A stretch of DNA of 24,817 nucleotides from Cyanobacteria bacterium P01_D01_bin.156 (GTDB lineage: Bacteria; Cyanobacteriota; Cyanobacteriia; Phormidesmidales; Phormidesmidaceae). The notes beneath the pieces were generated by a model that was not told the DNA's origin, did not search any database, and worked only from the letters and a program-made list of their open reading frames with translations. This document shows, piece after piece, positions 2,192-24,678 of this stretch. Every line of letters begins with the position of its first letter. Within the stretch, counting starts at the first letter, position 1. The position numbers and the translations under genes were made by a program. Where the stretch lies: the NCBI GenBank assembly GCA_039024555.1, contig JBCCQQ010000078.1:1-24817 (forward strand), read 5' to 3'.

Positions 2192-3628
2192 GTGTTTAAC
2201 ACCTACGACCCCGGCGATTTTTACGATGAGCTTTTTATTAGTCGTGGTGTGCCTCGACCAGAAGCCGAACTGTTGGTAAAGCGTATTAGTGATATTTCCA
2301 TTGATGAGCTAACGTTACGGCAGCAGATGGCTCAAAATATGTTGTTTAAGTTAGGGGTAACGTTTAACGTCTATAGTGACAACCAAGGAACAGAGCGTAT
2401 ATTTCCATTTGATCTTGTGCCCCGAGTAGTTCCCAGCAATGAGTGGGCATGGCTAGAACGTGGATTAAAACAGCGTATTCAGGCACTGAACTGTTTTTTA
2501 GGTGATATTTATAACGATCAAAAGATCATTGCAGATGGGATTATCTCCCGAGAGGTGATTGAGTCGGCAACGGGATTTTTGAAGCCTTGTGTAGGGTTGA
2601 AGCCCCCAAAAGGAATTTGGTGTCACATTACAGGTACCGATCTGGTGAGAGATCGTGAGGGTCATTGGTATGTTCTTGAGGACAATCTTCGTTGTCCATC
2701 TGGCGTATCCTACGTGCTCGAGAATAGACGAGTCATGAAGGGGGCGTTTCCAGCGCTGTTTGAGGCCCTTAATATTAATCCGGTGGATGCTTATCCGAGT
2801 CAGCTGTTAGCGTCTCTGCTACACCTAGCACCCGATGGTGTGCCAGACCCTCAGGTGGTACTACTGTCTCCAGGAATTTACAATTCCGCCTATTTTGAGC
2901 ATTCGTTTTTAGCTCAGCAAATGGGGATTGAACTGGTGGAAGGGCGAGATCTGGTAATTGCGGATGGCTATCTGCAAATGAAGACCACCAAAGGTCTCCA
3001 GCGGGTAGATGTCGTCTATCGACGGATTGATGATGATTTTCTGGATCCGCTTACATTTCGGGCTGATTCCCTACTTGGGGTGCCAGGATTAATGGATGTG
3101 TATCGTCAGGGACGGGTTGCGATCGCAAATGCTCCTGGTACAGGGGTGGCTGACGATAAAATGATTTACAGCTACGTCCCTGAGATGATCCGCTACTATC
3201 TTGGTGAAGAACAGATTATCCCCAATGTCCCGACCTATCTTTGCGAAAATCCCCAACAAAAAGACTACGTTCTCAGTCATTTAGATGAGCTAGTGGTCAA
3301 AGCAACCAATGCTTCTGGCGGGTATGGCATGCTGGTGGGTCCCCATGCAACTGAGCCAGAACGAGCGACCTTTGCAAAACAGATTAAAGCTAACCCAAGG
3401 GAATACATTGCTCAGCCAACCTTATGTCTCTCGCGGGTACCTACATTGATTGACAGCGAATTTCAAGGCTGTCATGTAGATTTGCGACCCTTTATTTTGA
3501 ATGGAGAAGACATTTATGTAAATCCTGGCGGCCTAACACGAGTTGCCCTAAAGAAAGGCTCCCTGGTGGTTAACTCATCCCAAGGTGGCGGTAGTAAGGA
3601 TACATGGGTGGTTGCGGCAACAAGCTGA
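2192..3628 (+). CDS. Circularly permuted type 2 ATP-grasp protein
   Basis: VLEDNLRCPSGVSY, YRRIDDDFLDP, NAPGTGVADDK, HVDLRPF, GGLTRVAL..GSLVVNSSQGGGSKDTWV signature motifs. Confidence 0.93.
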   Translation: MFNTYDPGDFYDELFISRGVPRPEAELLVKRISDISIDELTLRQQMAQNMLFKLGVTFNVYSDNQGTERIFPFDLVPRVVPSNEWAWLERGLKQRIQALNCFLGDIYNDQKIIADGIISREVIESATGFLKPCVGLKPPKGIWCHITGTDLVRDREGHWYVLEDNLRCPSGVSYVLENRRVMKGAFPALFEALNINPVDAYPSQLLASLLHLAPDGVPDPQVVLLSPGIYNSAYFEHSFLAQQMGIELVEGRDLVIADGYLQMKTTKGLQRVDVVYRRIDDDFLDPLTFRADSLLGVPGLMDVYRQGRVAIANAPGTGVADDKMIYSYVPEMIRYYLGEEQIIPNVPTYLCENPQQKDYVLSHLDELVVKATNASGGYGMLVGPHATEPERATFAKQIKANPREYIAQPTLCLSRVPTLIDSEFQGCHVDLRPFILNGEDIYVNPGGLTRVALKKGSLVVNSSQGGGSKDTWVVAATS

Positions 3629-3676
3629 CCCACTTCTCATGGCCATTATGCAAATCATATTTTAGTGAGTCATACC

Positions 3677-4627
3677 ATGCTAAGTCGTGTTGCCGATTCA
3701 ATTTACTGGATTAATCGCTATGTCGAACGGGCAGAAAATGTGTCTCGTTTTGTTGAAGTTAATTTGCACCTCTTGCTAGATACGCCTGTGGGCACTACGC
3801 AGCAGTGGGAGCCTTTGGTGATTACCACAGGAGATCAGGACATCTTTCAAGAACGCTACGGTGAAGCAACTGCCGAGAATGTGCTCAATTTTCTCACCTT
3901 TGACTCGGGCTATTCCAACTCCATTCGCTCCTGTGTCAAACTAGCAAGGGAAAATGCCCGCTCTGTTCGAGAGATTATTTCATCGGAGATGTGGGAACAG
4001 CTCAATGAATTTTATCTGCAGGTGGAAGAGGCTGCTAGGTCTGACGATATGACTCAGCTCTATACCTTTTATCCTGAGGTAAAAAAGGCAAGTCATATGT
4101 TTGCTGGGCTGATGGATGCCACCATGTCCCACAATGAAGGTTGGCACTTTGGTCAACTAGGGCGCTTCCTTGAGCGAGCCGACAAGACAGCGCGCATTTT
4201 GGATGTAAAGTACTTTATTTTGCTGCCATCGGTGACTGCTGTGGGAAGCCCCCTAGACAATTTGCAGTGGAGTGCGTTGTTGCGTTCCGCCAGTGCTTAT
4301 GAGATGTATCGTAAATGTCAGCACATGATCCATCCAAGCGGTGTGGTGGAATTTTTGGTATTGCATCCAGAATTTCCCCGCTCAATTCGCTGCTGTATTT
4401 TGCAGGCGGAACAATCATTAAATAAAATTTCGGGGTCTCCTGGCGGTAGCTGGCGATTAAGCAGCGAAAGACGGTTGGGCAAGCTACGATCTCATCTCGA
4501 ATACATTACCCTAGAGGAGGTTTTTCAAGTAGGTCTCCACGAGTTTCTTGATAATATTCAAGACGATCTCAATCAGGTCGGTAGCGCCATCACTGAAAAT
4601 TTCTTTGCACTGCAGGTTTCTGGGTAG
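3677..4627 (+). CDS. Alpha-E domain protein (DUF403)
   Basis: MLSRVADSIYWINRYVERAEN and a second LGRFLERAD repeat, ARENARSVR, FPRSI. Start placed at ATG 3677 (ORF track starts at GTG 3665). Confidence 0.92.
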   Translation: MLSRVADSIYWINRYVERAENVSRFVEVNLHLLLDTPVGTTQQWEPLVITTGDQDIFQERYGEATAENVLNFLTFDSGYSNSIRSCVKLARENARSVREIISSEMWEQLNEFYLQVEEAARSDDMTQLYTFYPEVKKASHMFAGLMDATMSHNEGWHFGQLGRFLERADKTARILDVKYFILLPSVTAVGSPLDNLQWSALLRSASAYEMYRKCQHMIHPSGVVEFLVLHPEFPRSIRCCILQAEQSLNKISGSPGGSWRLSSERRLGKLRSHLEYITLEEVFQVGLHEFLDNIQDDLNQVGSAITENFFALQVSG

Positions 4628-4636
4628 TAACAATTT

Positions 4637-5494
4637 ATGCGCTATCGTATTATCCACCAAACTCGATATGACTATGCTGAACCCGTTCGACTGGGAACAC
4701 ATATAATCCGACTGCAGCCTCGGGTAGACGGTAGTCAGCGGCTTCACTACTTTACTTGCGAGATCGCCCCAACACCCCGAAAGTCAATTGATTGGCTCGA
4801 CCTAGAAGGGACTGTCTGTCGTCAGGTGTGGTTTTCGAATACTGATATCAACACGTTGACCATTGCCACTCAGTGCGAGGTAGAAACCTTAAGAACAAAT
4901 CCTTTTGACTATCTGTCTCCCGACTGGGCTATTGCCGCCCCCGTAGACTATCCTCAGTCTACACAGCAGCTAGTTGCCCCTTATTTGACTACGTCTTATG
5001 CCGATAGCCCTGCTGTTATTGACTGGGCACAGCAACAGCTGCATCAAGCTGACAGTAATGTGGGCATGTTTTTGACCCGCCTTACCCAAACGATTTATCA
5101 GACCTGTACCTACGAACACCGTCACCAAGGGCCGCCATGGCCGCCGGGTGTGGTCTTGGCCGAACAACAGGGTACCTGTCGTGATTTTACGGTTTTATTT
5201 ATGGCAGCCTGTCGAGCCGTGGGCCTGGCCGCTCGCTTTGTAAGTGGCTATCAGCGGGGTGCTCAAGACCAAACTAGCCATGACTTACATGCATGGCCAG
5301 AGGTCTATGTGCCGGGAGGAGGATGGCGTGGTTTTGACCCCACACTGGGGTTAGCTGTGGCGGACGACCATATTTCATTGGCAGCGGCTAGGGAACCGGC
5401 TCAGGCAGCTGCGGTAACCGGCACACTGCAACCAGGGCATTTGAGCCAGAGTCGTCTGAACGCTGACATTCAGTTAACTGTGCTGAACAGTTAG
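4637..5494 (+). CDS. Transglutaminase-family protein
   Basis: N-terminal YRIIHQTRYDY; catalytic triad in GTCRDF (Cys), HAWPE (His), FDPT (Asp); ARFVSGY. Confidence 0.92.
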   Translation: MRYRIIHQTRYDYAEPVRLGTHIIRLQPRVDGSQRLHYFTCEIAPTPRKSIDWLDLEGTVCRQVWFSNTDINTLTIATQCEVETLRTNPFDYLSPDWAIAAPVDYPQSTQQLVAPYLTTSYADSPAVIDWAQQQLHQADSNVGMFLTRLTQTIYQTCTYEHRHQGPPWPPGVVLAEQQGTCRDFTVLFMAACRAVGLAARFVSGYQRGAQDQTSHDLHAWPEVYVPGGGWRGFDPTLGLAVADDHISLAAAREPAQAAAVTGTLQPGHLSQSRLNADIQLTVLNS

Positions 5495-5551
5495 GGGGCA
5501 AAAAATCAGGTTCCAGAGGGGATAGGTGAATAGGCACGGGTATTGCCAGTT

Positions 5552-6319
5552 CTATTCAAGGGAAAAATCAGGCTCGGCTTCAACCGATACTCGATTCCAT
5601 TTTAGAGTGGGCATATTGTTGGTCGCTTCTCGTAGAGCGCCTTCCCAATACTTACGAATGGTCGCCAGGTACGGATCGCTGGACTGGAGCTGCACACGAT
5701 GGCGAATTTCAAAGCTATCGGCTTCGTAAAGCACCATGTTAATTGGGGGACCCACAGAAATATTGGAACGCATGGTGGAGTCAATAGAGAGTAAAGCGCA
5801 TTTTGCGATCGCATCCAGTGACGATTCATGGGTCAGGGTACGGTCCAATATCGGTTTGCCATACTTAGTCTCACCAATCTGTAGAAAGGGGGTCTCCGGT
5901 GTAGTCTTGATGCAATTGCCCTGGCTATAAATCAGAAATATTTCAGGGGATTCTCCCGGTAGCTGTCCTCCCACTAAAAAATTGCACTGAAACTTAATAC
6001 CGTCTTGATCTAGCCAATGACGATCTTCATCCTGAATCTTGCGAATTTCATGGCCAATATACCGAGCAATGCCATACATGGTAGGGATAGTGTGCAGCGA
6101 ATCCTTGGCACCATTTTTAATATCCTGCCCCAGCCGATGCACAACAGCTTGAGTGACCGATAAATTACCCGATACACAGGCTATCACCACCCGTTCGCCA
6201 GGAATTGAGAAGTCAAATAGTTTCTGATAGGACGAAATATAGTCTACCCCCGCATTGGTACGAGAGTCAGCAGCTAAGACAAGTCCCTCTTTTACTGAAA
6301 TTCCCAAACAATAGGTCAT
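5552..6319 (-). CDS. Proteasome-type Ntn protease (Anbu family)
   Basis: MTYCLGI..GLVLAADSRTNAGVD with N-terminal Thr nucleophile, QIGETKYGKPILDR, SIDSTMRSNISVGPP. ATG at 6319 follows an AAGGAG RBS. Confidence 0.93.
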   Translation of the reverse strand: MTYCLGISVKEGLVLAADSRTNAGVDYISSYQKLFDFSIPGERVVIACVSGNLSVTQAVVHRLGQDIKNGAKDSLHTIPTMYGIARYIGHEIRKIQDEDRHWLDQDGIKFQCNFLVGGQLPGESPEIFLIYSQGNCIKTTPETPFLQIGETKYGKPILDRTLTHESSLDAIAKCALLSIDSTMRSNISVGPPINMVLYEADSFEIRHRVQLQSSDPYLATIRKYWEGALREATNNMPTLKWNRVSVEAEPDFSLE

Positions 6320-6609
6320 CACCCCAGACTCCTTCCTTCTGCAATTAACCCATATTACGTATGGGGTACAGTCTACGCGAACTCCTATGGTTTGTGATTA
6401 TTTATACGAATCTATCTGGTTTAGTACCCCAACCACCTATTTTTGTTCATTACCTTCTCCACCTGCGGGGGTAGGCGTAGAATCCCAATCTTCCACCATG
6501 TGCGATCTCGTAACACTCAGTTCCTGATATAGCTGGTATTTTCTAGCGATAACTCCAAACATTAAAATAGCTGCTTAAAATTGAAACGTCACATATAACG
6601 CACATCGTT

Positions 6610-9631: not shown

Positions 9632-12600
9632 CTAGACGTAGCTAAATGCCTGACTGGTTAGATCTAGAGTCGTTGTGTTGTTGAATACTGCAATCAAATC
9701 GCTTCCACCAGCAGAACCTGGATTGGAAAGATAAAGATAAATATCACGCCCTTGAGTCTGCTGCGTATAGCTGACAGAACCTAACAGTTGAACCTGATCG
9801 ACAGCGGCATCGAAGTCAGTGATCGTTGCATAGTCGGCATCCCCTTGGGTGCCATAGTAAACCTGATCAGCATCAGCCAATATAAACACATCAGCACCTG
9901 AACCACCGGTCAACGTATCTTTTTCCGAGTACCCTACAGCAACTTCATCGGTTCCATTAAGCGTATCGTTACCAAGACCGCCGTAAAGTTGGTCATCTCC
10001 TGCCCCACCTCGCAGAATATCGTTAGAGACCTCTACTTGAATAAAATCAACATAGTCAAATCGAGTAAACTCTTCACCCTCAGAAAGACCGACAATTTCC
10101 AAGGTATCCAACTGGCTAATTGCTACACCTTTTGCAACCACACGACTAACTGCATTACTAATGCCTGCAGCATTACTGCCCAAGTCTTGATCCAGTACCC
10201 AGCTATCGAGTTCTTGGCTATTCAGCTTAACAGTTAACTCACCGTTACCGTCATTTTCGTCAAAGTAGCCAACGACAATATCGTAATAGCCTGTTTCTCC
10301 CATAAATACATGATTGGCTGTGTAATTGTTGTTAATGCCATAGGCCTTAACTAGAGCATCTCCCGATGCTATATCTCTTTCTTCAACTTGATAGTCACCA
10401 GAAATTGTCATAGTCTCTGCTTCAATTCGAGTGACTCCTGTCGGAATTGGTTCACTAGATGTTTCCACCTGAATAAACTCCACATAGTCAAATCGAGCAA
10501 ATTCATCTCCCTCAGAGAGACCTGTGATTTCAAGAGTATCCAGCTGGTTAATTGCTACACCTTTTGCAACCACACGGCTGACTGCATTGTTCGCACCAGC
10601 AGCATCGCTACCCAATTGCTGATCAAGCGCCCAACTATCCAGCTCTTGATTACCAAGTTTTACACTCAATTGAGCCCGTCCATCATTTTCATCAAAATAG
10701 CCAACCACAATATCGTAATAGCCCGTTTCCCCGGTAAATGTATGACTGGCCGTGTAACTCTTGTTGTCAGTACCAGAGGCTCTAACTAAATTACCTTTCG
10801 ATGCGACAGAGGTTTCTATAACCTCATAGTCACCAGAAAGTTCCATGGTCTCTGCTTCAATTCGGGTAGTGTCTCCAGGCAATGTAGGTGTTGAGAGAAG
10901 ATTACTATATTCTTCCACCTGAACAAACTCTACATAGTCGAATCGAGCAAATTCATCCCCTTCGGAAAGTCCTGTAATTTCAAGAACATCTAGTTGATTA
11001 ATTGCTACACCTTCAGCAACAGTGCGATTAACTAGATTAAACGTATGTGCAACATTGCTACCAAACGTTTTATCAAACACCCAGCTATCTAGCTCTTGAT
11101 CACCCAGCTTGACACTTAATTGAGCCCGACCATCATTCTCATCAAAATAGCCAACAACAATATTATAGTAGCCTGTTTCTCCGGTAAATGTATGACTGGC
11201 TGTATAACTCTTGTTGTCAGCACCAGAGGCTCTGACTAAACTTCCGCCCGATGCAACGGATGTATTTATAACTTCATAATCACCGGAATGCCTCATGGTT
11301 TCCGCTTCAATTCGGGTGGTCTCTCCTACTAGTCTAGATATTGTATTCGGATCCCTTAAAGTTTGGATTGCCGCATGTTCACTGTTAATTTCCAAACCAG
11401 GAATATTGTCACCATACAAAATATCGTCACCAGCTTCCCCATCTAGAACATCATTACCGGCGCCACCCACTAAGAGATCATTTTCATCTCCTCCCTCAAG
11501 GAGGTCATCTTGGCGACCACCGAGTAAGATATCCTGACCTTGATCGCCTTTCAGAACATCTTTGCCATCGCCACCTTTTAGGAGGTCGTCACCAGTACCA
11601 CCAGAAATAATGTCGTCGCCCGTCTCACCCAAAAGAATATCTGCGTCACCTTCGCCAGCCAAGAAATCATCCCCAGCCCCTCCATACAGAAAGTCATTAC
11701 CTTGAGCACCAAACAGAATATCGTTTCCGGCATCTCCCAGGAGAATATCGTTTTCTTCTTTTCCATCAATCAAATCTTCACCTATGGAACCATGGAGTAA
11801 ATCCTGAGTTTGCTGACCAGCTATAATCTTGTCAGAGTCTCCCTTAGTAAGGACATTTACAGTCTCATTAGATGAATCAGGAGACGTGTCTCCTCCTGCA
11901 GTTCCTGCGTCATTGAGATTTTGCTCAACCTCTTGCCACCAGCTAGCATAGCCCAGTTCAAACGCTTGCCACCAGCTAGCATACCCTAAATTGAGCATAC
12001 CGGTTTCAAATTCTTGCCACCAGCTGGCATAGCCCAACTCAAGCACTTGTTCTTCAAATATCTGCCACCAACTGGCATAGCCCAATTCAAGCACTTGCCC
12101 TTCAAACGCTTGCCACCAGCTGGCATAGCCTAGCTCAAGCAACCCGGCTTCAAATTCTTGCCACCAGCTGGCATAGCCTAAGGCTAACATCTGTTGTTCA
12201 AAAATATACCACCAGCTGCCATAGGAAACTTCTAGCATTTGTGGCTCGAACTGTTGCCACCAGCTGGCATAACCCAGATTGAGTGCATCTGTTGCCATAT
12301 CAGTTTCAAACTGTTGCCACCAGCTGGCATAGCCCAATTCAAGTACTTGACTTTCAAACGCCTGCCACCAGCTGGCATAGCCTAGCTCAGACATGGGTTG
12401 GTCAAACGCTTGCCACCAGCTGGCATAGCCTAGATTGAGCAGATCAGTTTCAAACTGTTGCCACCAGCTGGCATAGCCTAGCTCAACCATTTGATCCTTA
12501 AAGGCTTGCCACCAGCTGGCATAGCCCAAAGTGTACCAATCTTGCCCACTAGCAATAGCGGCTTCAACAGCCTCTACACCCACCTGAAAATCTTGGCTGA

Positions 12601-13573
12601 TGGTGGCTATGGCCTGGTCATAAAGACTGTTTAAATCTAGTTCTGCTTGGTGGGCATCATAGTCGACATCCCATCCTAGAGCGTCAAATGACTGTAAATC
12701 GAGCAGGGAAATATTTGTTCTTTCCTGGTACCCCAAGGTAGGATCCATAATCCCTAGTGCGTTTTGATAACGCTGCCAGTGACTTGCCTGATATTCGTCG
12801 CCTTCTTCAAATTCGGCCAGAGTTGTTGAGCCACCATCTAAGGAGAAGTATGTTGCTTTTCCAACCGTTAAATCACCAATGCTCCCGTCAGGGCTCTCGA
12901 TATTGACACTGGCATCGCTATAGCGCAGAAGATCAAGAGCAGTAAAACCTTCAGTGCGGACCTCCCCAGAATGTAGTTCAAAGGTTTTCATTAACCCATC
13001 TAAGCCACTGACAAAACCTAGACTATGACCTATCTCATGGAGAGCCATAGTCAAAAAATCTAAGGTGTCTGACGGAGCGTCTGATGCTCTTGTAAAGTCA
13101 TAGTTCCAGGCATAACTGTTATTAACCACCAAATATCCGTCTAAGGCAGCTGGCTTCTCAAGAACATCTTGGTCCCATGTATTACCATTGCTTAACCCAA
13201 GCGCTTTATCCATCCCTAGAGCTTTAGCTTGGGCACGGGTCACCATCAAGGTAGTATTGCCATCTACTAGCTGACCATCTATTAAAAAATCTACCGTATT
13301 ACCCTGCTGGAGAGCATTGAGAACAGAACCATCAGCCTCAGACGTGGCATCTAGTTTAAGATACTCTTGATATGTTCCATAGTGAACTTCGTGAAATAGT
13401 GGAACAGCTCCACCAACGGCCTTATTATTATTCAACGAATCAGCAGAGCTGACGTGAAGGTTGATTGTGGTATCGTCAGTCAGAAATTTTGACCAGATTG
13501 AAGCAGCTATTTGAAAGCCAACACGCTGCTCTAGAGTGACATTAAGGTCGTGGGTAAGCTTTATTTGGACCAT
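9632..13573 (-). CDS. Large secreted zinc metalloprotease (HExxHxLGF, NF038122-like) with Trp-rich repeat array, RTX Ca-binding repeats and three CBM-like domains
   Basis: HEIGHSLGF (HEIGH at 13025-13039), ASHW..GIMDP (probable third ligand and Met-turn), 13 LGYASWWQ-type repeats, GGxGxD nonapeptides, three RIEAETM..DENDG domains, RTX-type C-terminus, no obvious Sec signal. Confidence 0.88.
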   Translation of the reverse strand: MVQIKLTHDLNVTLEQRVGFQIAASIWSKFLTDDTTINLHVSSADSLNNNKAVGGAVPLFHEVHYGTYQEYLKLDATSEADGSVLNALQQGNTVDFLIDGQLVDGNTTLMVTRAQAKALGMDKALGLSNGNTWDQDVLEKPAALDGYLVVNNSYAWNYDFTRASDAPSDTLDFLTMALHEIGHSLGFVSGLDGLMKTFELHSGEVRTEGFTALDLLRYSDASVNIESPDGSIGDLTVGKATYFSLDGGSTTLAEFEEGDEYQASHWQRYQNALGIMDPTLGYQERTNISLLDLQSFDALGWDVDYDAHQAELDLNSLYDQAIATISQDFQVGVEAVEAAIASGQDWYTLGYASWWQAFKDQMVELGYASWWQQFETDLLNLGYASWWQAFDQPMSELGYASWWQAFESQVLELGYASWWQQFETDMATDALNLGYASWWQQFEPQMLEVSYGSWWYIFEQQMLALGYASWWQEFEAGLLELGYASWWQAFEGQVLELGYASWWQIFEEQVLELGYASWWQEFETGMLNLGYASWWQAFELGYASWWQEVEQNLNDAGTAGGDTSPDSSNETVNVLTKGDSDKIIAGQQTQDLLHGSIGEDLIDGKEENDILLGDAGNDILFGAQGNDFLYGGAGDDFLAGEGDADILLGETGDDIISGGTGDDLLKGGDGKDVLKGDQGQDILLGGRQDDLLEGGDENDLLVGGAGNDVLDGEAGDDILYGDNIPGLEINSEHAAIQTLRDPNTISRLVGETTRIEAETMRHSGDYEVINTSVASGGSLVRASGADNKSYTASHTFTGETGYYNIVVGYFDENDGRAQLSVKLGDQELDSWVFDKTFGSNVAHTFNLVNRTVAEGVAINQLDVLEITGLSEGDEFARFDYVEFVQVEEYSNLLSTPTLPGDTTRIEAETMELSGDYEVIETSVASKGNLVRASGTDNKSYTASHTFTGETGYYDIVVGYFDENDGRAQLSVKLGNQELDSWALDQQLGSDAAGANNAVSRVVAKGVAINQLDTLEITGLSEGDEFARFDYVEFIQVETSSEPIPTGVTRIEAETMTISGDYQVEERDIASGDALVKAYGINNNYTANHVFMGETGYYDIVVGYFDENDGNGELTVKLNSQELDSWVLDQDLGSNAAGISNAVSRVVAKGVAISQLDTLEIVGLSEGEEFTRFDYVDFIQVEVSNDILRGGAGDDQLYGGLGNDTLNGTDEVAVGYSEKDTLTGGSGADVFILADADQVYYGTQGDADYATITDFDAAVDQVQLLGSVSYTQQTQGRDIYLYLSNPGSAGGSDLIAVFNNTTTLDLTSQAFSYV
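10035..11317 (-). repeat. Three tandem ~400-bp domain copies (CBM6/CBM35-like)
   Basis: Units at about 10035-10432, 10468-10867 and 10918-11317 share TRIEAETM, TGYYxIVVGYFDENDG, QELDSW, RFDYVxF and long identical DNA stretches. Confidence 0.85.
11933..12529 (-). repeat. In-frame array of 13 LGYASWWQ-type repeats (48-nt period)
   Basis: Plus-strand core TTGCCACCAGCTGGCATAGCC; start-to-start spacings are one of 33 nt, ten of 48 nt and one of 60 nt, all multiples of 3. Confidence 0.97.
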
Positions 13574-14377: not shown

Positions 14378-14713
14378 CTAATCCAGTGGCAAGATAGGAT
14401 CTCCTGCGGAAGACCATGGAGTATCCTGTCCTTTATCTAAATCAACTTCAATTTCCAAAAGGGATTCTAGCTGTTGCTTGAGTTGCTGCAACCACCCAGA
14501 TTCCTTTTCGAGCAAGGCATCAGACTCAGATTTTGATAGGATATTGATGGGGAGATCATGCTCTATTGAGTAACCTACATGTTGAGGGGAGGTCGTTTCT
14601 TCCTCAAACAAAATATTGATGACTTCCAATTCAACGCATTTGAGATCCTCTACGGAGAACATCATCAGATAGGGGGTAACTATAGTAAATTTCGGAGAAA
14701 ATTTAGATTTCAT
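14378..14713 (-). CDS. Hypothetical acidic protein (true start possibly the MMFS Met near 14666)
   Basis: 111-codon ORF in an otherwise empty interval, E/D/L-rich with a likely amphipathic helix; no family recognised. Confidence 0.55.
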   Translation of the reverse strand: MKSKFSPKFTIVTPYLMMFSVEDLKCVELEVINILFEEETTSPQHVGYSIEHDLPINILSKSESDALLEKESGWLQQLKQQLESLLEIEVDLDKGQDTPWSSAGDPILPLD

Positions 14714-23208: not shown

Positions 23209-24678
23209 ATGAACCCCTTCCAGGATGCTTTTATTTCCTATGGTCGTGCCGATAGTAAGCAATTTGCCCAGGAACTTAGCAAACGCCTCAAAAAGCTGGG
23301 CTACACGGTTTGGTTTGACGTTAACGATATTCCGCTAGGGGTGGATTACCAAAAGCAAATCGATGACGGCATTGAGAAGGCGGATAACCTTTTGTATCTG
23401 ATTTCGCCCCATTCAGTGAACTCAGAGTACTGCAATCTGGAAATTGAGCTGGCGCTAAAGCACAAGAAACGGATTATCCCGTTGCTGCATGTGGAGGAGA
23501 TCAGCTACGAAATCTGGCAATCTCGTAATCCTGGGGGTACACAGGAGCAATGGGAAGTCTATAAGGCCGCAGGCAAGCATTGCCATTTCACCAATATGCA
23601 CCCGTCAATTCGTAAGATTAACTGGGTCTATTTTCGTGAAGGCATCGATGACTTTGAGCAGTCTTTTCAGGGATTATTGGAACTGTTCGGTCGAGAAAAA
23701 GACTATGTGCATCAGCATACGGTGCTGCTGAACGATGCGTTGGAGTGGGAGCGTAACCAGAAACAAACCCGCTATTTACTCACTGGAGAAGATAAGCAAA
23801 ACGCAGAAGAATGGCTAGCGCAGCGATTTAAAGACAGTCAGCCGCCGGTAATTTCCACGGACTTACACTATGAGTACATTACCGAGAGTATCAAAAACGG
23901 CGACAACCTGATGACCCAGGTATTTTTGTCCCATGCAGAGGAAGATGCTAAGACCACTGACCAGGTGCGACGCACCCTGATGCGGGCAGGGATTACCACC
24001 TGGACCTATCGGTCTGATATTGAATTTGGCAGTGATTTTGAGGCGGCACTAAAGCGAGGTGTAGAAGAAACTGACAATGTGTTGTACTTGATGTCTCGTA
24101 ACTCCCTTGCCAGTAAATATTGCCAGCAGGAGATTGATCTAGCAGTTCAGCTGAATAAGCGGCTAATCATTATGCTAGCTGGGGCGGTGGATGAGACAGA
24201 GATTCCAGTTGCGTTTAGGAATCTCCAGTACATTGACCTAACCGATAACGAGACTGAGGAAGATTACCTCAAAGATGAGGACGATCTGCTGCGGGTGCTC
24301 AAGCAGGATGCCAACTATTTTAATGAGCACAAAGTGTTGCTGACCAAAGCGATGAAGTGGGAGCGGCAGCAGCGGAACCCGTGTGTTTTGTTGCAGGGGT
24401 ATGAGTTGCAGCATGCTCAGGCTTGGCAAGAGGTTGCCCAGGCTAGGGATGCTAATGGCCCCACCGATATTCAGACGGAGTTTATTGAGGCAAGCAAAAA
24501 CCAAACAGCGGCGGTGTCGCCAGATGTGTTTATTTCCTATTCTCGGGCAGATTCTGACTTTGCGCGGAAGTTGAATAATGCTTTGCAGCGACAGCGTAAA
24601 CGTACCTGGTTTGATCAGGAGAGTATTGCCTCGGGAGCGGATTTTAAGCAGGAGATTTGTAAGGGGATTGAGAGTTGA
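23209..24678 (+). pseudogene. Multi-TIR-domain protein, truncated in its third TIR by an IS insertion
   Basis: TIR starts DAFISYGRAD, QVFLSHAEED and DVFISYSRAD. The third stops at GIES; the TGA is formed at the IS junction. Confidence 0.82.

Follow-up and report, generated by a model that had tools for sequence, protein, structure and literature searches.

Strain-typed peptide pheromones are familiar from Gram-positive bacteria and fungi. In Gram-positive quorum sensing systems with pherotypes (Agr, ComC, Phr), the signals are strain-specific short peptides that vary with their receptors, and they are made from small precursors by separate processing enzymes. Among cyanobacterial peptides, the cyanobactins derive from short, stand-alone precursors (PatE type) that carry several hypervariable cores between conserved flanks, and are processed by separate subtilisin-like proteases and often by cyclodehydratases. 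Here, we describe a 1313-residue metalloprotease from Cyanobacteria bacterium P01_D01_bin.156 that carries thirteen short peptide cores on its own chain. Its gene lies on the minus strand at 9632..13573 of contig JBCCQQ010000078.1, of which a stretch of 24,817 nucleotides was analysed (hereafter the window), and encodes, in order, an NF038122 metalloprotease, a helical extension, the 13-core array, RTX repeats, three repeated domains of ~150 residues and an RTX tail. We propose, giving the idea about an even chance, that this protein is a self-processing, multi-copy precursor of a strain-specific peptide signal that is read by a trans-envelope CHASE2 pathway.

The window protein resembles each of several known systems in part. 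Its protease domain is that of the NCBIfam family NF038122 (metallo_LGF), whose model is confined to the protease and takes in neither the leader/core/follower cassette nor the arrays or their gene context; a full-text literature search returned no paper for the accession. It resembles leishmanolysin (GP63) and the matrix metalloproteinases (MMPs) in its fold, its HExxH motif, a distant conserved His and a candidate Met-turn, at only 14% identity, and we know of no leishmanolysin or MMP enzyme with a cassette of variable cores. With cyanobactins it shares hypervariable cores and conserved flanks, yet it is a 1313-residue fusion with cores that are uniform within the protein. Further, no subtilisin-like protease or cyclodehydratase was found among the 11 neighbouring window open reading frames that were scanned, the others being judged by eye. 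The likeness to Agr, ComC and Phr lies in strain-specific short peptides, whereas here precursor and candidate processing enzyme form one chain.

Precursors with several cores have been described outside bacteria. As far as the available part of the source describes them, yeast alpha-factor and the fungal Kex2-processed dikaritins carry several cores per precursor that are released by proteolysis, and alpha-factor serves as a pheromone (PMC9233826). The window array has no dibasic sites, its spacers are acidic, and its candidate protease is fused to it and is a metzincin. In plants, according to the part of the source available, fused burpitide precursors bear multiple cores on the chain of the enzyme that acts on them (PMC11253845). 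There, BURP is a copper cyclase and release falls to other proteases, whereas a Pfam scan of the whole window protein found no BURP domain. By analogy, the window protein may work like alpha-factor or fused burpitide precursors, although the features that define those two classes are missing from it, as are those that define cyanobactins. A polypeptide signal sensed through an outer-membrane receptor and CHASE2 cyclases is described, in the available parts of two sources, for Sinorhizobium NsrA-CyaK/CyaD, where the signal is a host ribosomal protein (PMC13001267, PMC7529298). In the system proposed here the bacterium would make its own signal, and a TPS adhesin, together with TPR-CHAT and DUF928 proteins, would take the outer position. 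A full-text literature search, from which subscription journals mostly fall outside and in which supplements could list neighbourhoods, gave no description of a self-processing multi-core system or of cyanobacterial peptide signalling of this kind. The array is real, and undescribed in the literature searched.

A thirteen-core array

The array occupies residues 349-547 (11933..12529, minus strand). It holds 12 copies of LGYASWWQ and one VSYGSWWY, arranged as ten 16-residue units, one of 20 and one of 11 residues, and then the last core. An initial annotation, made from the sequence alone, had arrived at the same counts. It had also reported that the 21-nucleotide core is identical in seven copies and changes only synonymously in the remaining five canonical copies, and this held on recounting. 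Tandem Repeats Finder returned a period of 48 nucleotides, 11.6 copies and a score of 246. Among the nine canonical 16-residue units, the core shows a proportion of nonsynonymous differences (pN) of 0 at a synonymous proportion (pS) of 0.41, and the spacer a pN of 0.36 at a pS of 0.70. The contrast in pN agrees with the earlier proposal of selection on the peptide. However, core pS, which is concentrated largely in the first Leu codon, is lower than that of the spacer, indicating some homogenisation at the DNA level besides.

Four core pairs within LGY arrays of relatives abut without a spacer (P0003 once, P0267 twice, P0268 once), and the unit is therefore seven residues, LGYASWW. These pairs rule out the eight-residue core LGYASWWQ, and assign Q to the spacer. 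The window array thus comprises 13 heptapeptide cores, 12 LGYASWW and one VSYGSWW, joined by acidic spacers of the form Q-x-F-E(-x-x-x-L-E). Its 199 residues include one Lys and no Arg, giving a net charge of -24. The variant core is the seventh (12209..12229, minus strand), and retains the G-S that orthologues P0259 and P0261 show in most or all copies. Eight listed contig pieces of run X1 cover the array at 100% identity except for 17 bases (12432-12448), a coverage that is not independent if the run is, as is possible, the assembly's source data. Further contigs of that run match parts of the array (window 11971-12426) and are probably related arrays of other organisms.

Could the role of the array simply be structural, with Trp-rich helical repeats binding to membranes or self-assembling? 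The regularity of the arrays in the family, in which 274 of ~330 units are 16 residues long, would fit such a scaffold, as would a helical model and a modest hydrophobic moment of 0.32. In an AlphaFold2 model of residues 1-558 built from 107 sequences, where the array forms part of a longer chain, the array is helical at a predicted local distance difference test score (pLDDT) of 43-80 and takes no confident compact fold; as modelled, it is not a confident solenoid. Single-core and abutting forms also occur, and array-wide switches at two core positions (see below) are unexpected of a scaffold, so that we judge this reading very improbable. The initial annotation had named a compact solenoid or an already described repeat as grounds against its own proposal. 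Neither was found: the array had no match in NCBIfam, Pfam or the ESM Atlas, the last being queried by features, which does not show absence. The array alone, searched against proteins of 118-377 residues, likewise matched 0 of 4693 candidates at E 0.001, a result that does not show absence either.

A variable cassette across the protease family

Comparison of family sequences indicates that a cassette recurs across the cyanobacterial NF038122 proteins and that the window array is its expanded version. In this cassette a helical extension precedes a leader of the form D-[VI]-x-x-M-[IVL]-x-x-S-x-[VI]-Y-[EDN]. The core comes next and is variable; the follower after it has Q as its first residue and, in many cases, the sequence F-S-T-L-D. 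In the window protein, the helical extension (residues 305-348; 12530..12661, minus strand; helices at pLDDT 80-98) replaces the leader of single-core relatives and ends in W-Y-T directly ahead of core 1. The anchor was recovered in 225 of 279 distinct tails, 172 of them of leader type. The 145 cores of up to 30 residues fall into 138 different sequences, with a median length of 13 residues and a composition of 22% Gly and 17% Trp; a few extractions are visibly wrong, and an aromatic residue before the closing Q is part of the extraction rule. Some cores are polybasic, acidic or Cys-bearing. Relatives without a cassette are mostly non-cyanobacterial, and in them a PEP-CTERM tail follows the protease directly; a length rule, which also took in a few truncated tails, assigned 61 of 340 distinct tails to this group. 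The distribution of NF038122 is patchy, with matches above the cut-off in 9 of 301 genomes from the phylum, 66 of 401 from the class and 34 of 151 from the family, and up to 11 matches per genome.

In the model of a single-core relative (P0042; predicted template modelling score 0.86), the leader helix is modelled at pLDDT 96-97 and the core block at 81, with the follower as a strand. This ordered arrangement on the protease raises the prospect that the cassette is an autoinhibitory or bait segment, blocking the enzyme until another protease cuts the variable loop. The loops are bait-like in being rich in Gly, Ser and Arg, and the array-clade proteases shown begin at their first strand, with no N-terminal propeptide. 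Nonetheless, one cleft calls for one inhibitor rather than 13 selected copies. Cores are also common to distant proteases of one genome yet different in close orthologues, which places the constraint outside the protease's own active site. We consider a bait function quite improbable.

Variations on the cassette were seen in several lineages. The follower precedes, rather than trails, a second core-like copy in P0032, P0129, P0150, P0171 and P0236. A long helical insert marks the subfamily of L142, L144, L145, L147, L149 and L152, whose cores come after S-G-P-A-N-P-I and are very aromatic; all six adjoin TPS and CHAT genes. Two genomes, G425 and G723, hold eleven and eight NF038122 matches, respectively, with arrays mostly of LGYGELW.

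A leishmanolysin-type protease

The HEIGH zincin domain that the initial annotation placed ahead of the array is a member of the NF038122 family and a leishmanolysin-type metzincin. Residues 15-302 (12668..13531, minus strand) match the NF038122 hidden Markov model at 247 bits, against a curated cut-off of 80, and residues 1-340 of the AlphaFold2 model reach pLDDT 91-98. The best structural match of the protease model is leishmanolysin (1lml; Z 12.1, root-mean-square deviation 3.9, 189 aligned residues), with MMPs behind it, and the best fold matches to leishmanolysin and MMP-type metzincins score Z 12.1 and 11.9. Foldseek with the 558-residue model gave nothing at E 0.001, and a PDB sequence search gave weak MMP and karilysin motif matches only. 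The HEIGH zinc motif (H179, E180, H183; 13025..13039, minus strand) is invariant across the 107-row alignment. Where most metzincins have their third His, the motif has Ser; H265, in an SHW motif, and M276 (12746..12781, minus strand) are at least 90% conserved. Leishmanolysin itself uses a distant third zinc ligand, and the Ser together with the conserved H265 and M276 fits this arrangement, pointing to H265 as the predicted third ligand and M276 as the Met-turn. With its catalytic motifs intact, the window protease is predicted to be a zinc peptidase.

Of 225 cassette proteins, a set pre-filtered for the downstream His and Met, 223 have an intact HExxH, and the other two are N-terminal fragments. 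Three full-length relatives without the zinc motif also have no cassette. Cassette-less paralogues with Q-G-I-G replacing the zinc motif were observed at L157:8131-9381, L158:10097-11491 and L167:8856-10490, and two of these adjoin an intact copy. The protease was present in every one of the 34 proteins matched by the array alone. Covariation of the follower or leader with the protease gave signals at noise rank (effective number of sequences 114).

Multiplication and switching of cores

In a FastTree phylogeny of 114 hand-picked protease domains (of 119 chosen rows), cassette-less proteins lie on one side of a branch with support 99, and LGY arrays on one side of another with support 97. Multi-core forms outside the LGY arrays need 15 changes on this tree, at least six of which are forced by well-supported branches, and it follows from the tree that multi-core forms arose repeatedly. 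Directly abutting duplications end just before a Q in 9 of 10 cases, 8 of these at the Q that closes the core run, although several are kin. Where duplicates are separated by a spacer (P0175, P0195), they recopy residues that precede the core. Unit lengths in LGY arrays are mostly 7, 11, 16 and 21 residues.

Cores and spacers follow different histories. Four orthologues of the window protein (P0259-P0262) have the same 13 units, and their spacers are 0.75-0.79 identical by position versus 0.41-0.48 off position. Core positions 4-5 read AS in the window protein. P0259 and P0261 have GS there, P0262 has mostly GG or GS, and P0260 has mostly SR. These sequences indicate that cores switch array-wide between orthologues while spacers are inherited by position. 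The comparison of homologues that the initial annotation had called for shows variation on a larger scale: the 34 array proteins have 24 majority cores, with a core identity of 0.90 within proteins and 0.53 between them.

These patterns bear on a second explanation, in which the cores stay uncut on a secreted or surface protein and form a multivalent tag of identity that a TPS adhesin or another receptor binds, and the protease acts on a different target or only sheds the cassette. Such a tag would account equally well for the uniformity of cores, for their sharing between paralogues and for the gene neighbourhood described below. The spacers are position-conserved and helical in the model, beyond the need of simple spacers, and the single core of P0042 was modelled as ordered on the protease domain. 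Processing is better suited by abutting cores and unit lengths of 7 to 21, by duplications that copy pre-core residues (P0175, P0195), and by the fusion of an intact protease in all 34 array matches. On balance, we find an uncut tag rather unlikely.

Cores shared between paralogues of one genome

The PEP-CTERM and RTX members of the family form separate clades (support 100), yet the same or similar cores recur across them within a genome. In G762, LGYSQWW occurs in both clades. G425 has IGYGQLF versus LGYG[AE]L[FW] across the two, and the genome of the window (G000) has LGYAGWW and LGYGGWW on contig C72 versus LGYASWW in the window. Cross-clade core identity is 0.72 in 15 same-genome pairs and 0.52 in 155 others, a statistic drawn from LGY-like cores only, with a cross-clade figure from three genomes. 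Copies of one core mostly have mixed codons.

Further family genes occur on other contigs of the window's own genome. On contig C72 (130-2537; L042), two tandem PEP-CTERM paralogues have two cores each, the second being LGYGGWW or LGYAGWW. On contig C53 (39181-43831), two genes that we take to be FecR-like and a CHASE2 gene, presumably cyclase-like, are followed by the first 77 codons of an array-type paralogue at the contig end. The idea that C53 and C72 hold one broken gene was ruled out, the C53 fragment being 71% like an array-type gene. The entire contig C140 (1-3857), comprising the end of an array-type gene, an EAL gene and a TPS gene, is 98.9% identical to L002 13681-17537, which reflects either recent transfer or binning carry-over.

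Gene neighbourhood

By Pfam, the neighbours of cassette genes include TPS secretion-domain proteins, ShlB, TPR-CHAT, DUF928 and CHASE2 kinases, often in one run with the protease gene. The sample comprised 60 fetched stretches, favouring long contigs and multi-copy genomes, with 11 earlier ones and the window, all classed by eye; L124 (truncated), L151 (frame break), L139 (duplicate) and L001 (short contig) were left out. Within 2.5 kb, a TPS or ShlB gene was present at 32 of the 41 few-core loci and 5 of the 19 array loci, and at none of the 9 cassette-less loci. Leaving out six positives that had supplied the markers, the counts are 28 of 37 few-core and 3 of 17 array loci. The background in the window's own genome is 3.9% within 4 kb.

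The initial annotation had proposed a signal, toxin or surface-active agent as the product. Gene context and the cores common to paralogues favour a signal. We think it improbable that the excised cores, whether linear or cyclic, serve as antimicrobial, anti-grazer or surface-active agents rather than as signals. Cores are Trp-rich, and in some lineages strongly cationic, the multi-copy layout would give yield, and most array genes have no receptor-like neighbours. Yet a toxin library would not be expected to use one core in distant paralogues or to adjoin signalling modules, the window core is neutral, and no conserved immunity-like or tailoring neighbour was seen among the loci compared.

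The same annotation had stated that no tailoring enzymes are encoded nearby. This needs amending, since a group of circularly permuted ATP-grasp, alpha-E, transglutaminase-like and proteasome-subunit-like genes, presumably an Anbu-type operon, lies 3.3 kb from the protease gene (window 2192-6322). As a source of core tailoring this operon was rejected: across 11 other loci compared, no gene next to a cassette-bearing relative matched any gene of the operon, and the sole transglutaminase match was at the cassette-less L036.

Further observations concern the neighbouring modules themselves. A TPS gene in the window's genome (G000:C76:23256-25634), 187 bases from a contig end, is ~68% like the TPS gene adjoining the array gene in L139. 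In most DUF928 genes of L037-L181, the N-terminal part includes a loop, G-G-[AS/T]-[SR]-R, with a loose likeness to the G-R-R-x-G-G cores, and no match was seen between the loop and the cognate core. A comparison of identity, component by component, over 14 pairs of loci singled out no module gene as tracking the core.

A proposed self-processing precursor and its limits

We propose that the full protein would leave the cell by type I export. RTX calcium-binding repeats are present (PF00353, six stretches in the protein), with RTX-family stretches from residue 574 and the main block at approximately residues 574-723 (11405..11854, minus strand). No N-terminal signal peptide was seen by eye, and the chain begins at the protease's first strand. 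Together, these features suggest type I export. Once outside, the protein's own leishmanolysin-type protease would cut before and after each core, following a bulky hydrophobic-x pair (V-L-E|L, A-F-E|L, W-Y-T|L, W-W|Q, W-W|L). This would set free LGYASWW in about 12 copies, as a linear rather than a cyclic peptide. The calculated [M+H]+ is 882.41 for the linear heptapeptide, 864.40 for its head-to-tail cyclic form and 1010.47 for LGYASWWQ. The initial annotation had predicted LGYASWWQ(x), cut before F; a heptapeptide cut before L and before Q reads better. Its broader proposal of a multi-core precursor is strongly supported, by comparison of relatives, through the family-wide cassette, the repeated multiplication of cores, the duplications ending at Q, the abutting cores and the intact catalytic motifs, with cleavage itself remaining a prediction. 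The array would offer a higher dose per secreted protein, as in yeast alpha-factor, and the peptide would probably be sensed through a relay of TPS adhesin, TPR-CHAT, DUF928 and CHASE2 proteins encoded elsewhere in the genome.

Several observations weigh against this proposal, among them the scope of the same-genome core statistic given above, with its LGY-like cores and three genomes. The frequencies of an aromatic residue before Q are partly circular, being built into the extraction rule, and widely differing residues (W, G, L, M, Q, R) follow the proposed cut. Cassette-less relatives mostly retain the catalytic motif as well, and intact catalysis thus does not single out the cassette as substrate. 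The Fisher p of 0.0005 for the neighbourhood overstates the association, with loci hand-chosen and hand-classed and kin non-independent. In a quick tree the adjacent TPS genes do not form a single clade (8 changes), and 14 of 19 array loci, several of them cut by contig ends, have no adjoining TPS or ShlB gene. The window gene has no TPS, CHAT, DUF928 or CHASE2 module gene anywhere on its 24.8-kb contig. Its genome has ~22 TPS, 34 CHAT, 11 DUF928 and 16-18 CHASE2 loci, so many candidates that no single cognate receptor can be assigned. Some genomes, G644, G662 and G425 among them, also have additional core classes that are unrelated, and several arrays (P0002, P0003, L146) have mixed cores.

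More broadly, with somewhat less than even confidence, we suggest that the family constitutes an undescribed peptide identity system of cyanobacteria. Secreted or PEP-CTERM-anchored metzincins would carry and release their own hypervariable peptides, which are shared by paralogues of a genome, multiplied up to 13-17-fold in RTX arrays, and read by TPS/TPR-CHAT/DUF928/CHASE2 modules. If true, one secreted protein would be both precursor and processing enzyme in cyanobacteria. A ligand class would be named for orphan, abundant modules, the CHASE2 genes of this genome among them, and cells in mats and biofilms would have a means of recognising kin or sensing density. The family would also be a natural library of well over a hundred cores, with predicted peptides that are short and synthesisable. 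The cultured Leptolyngbya sp. PCC 7376 encodes two array proteins (P0003 and P0268), according to source names.

Other features of the window

Between the RTX repeats and the C-terminal tail lie the three ~150-residue repeated domains (10031..11323, minus strand), each beginning T-R-I-E-A-E. They are 67-81% identical to one another with a 450-nucleotide period, and we take them to be carbohydrate-binding-like. They had no Pfam match, and a PDB sequence search gave nothing below E 0.09. Similar domains recur in relatives. The C-terminal RTX repeats and tail occupy 9635..10021 (minus strand), and a similar tail is found on contig C140 of the same genome. Promoter and terminator scans gave nothing above shuffles, and no RNA data set was listed as a match. 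Upstream of the protease gene is a 111-residue open reading frame (window 14378-14713) with no Pfam or NCBIfam match. Near the contig end, a single protein (window 23209-24678) contains three TIR_2 stretches.

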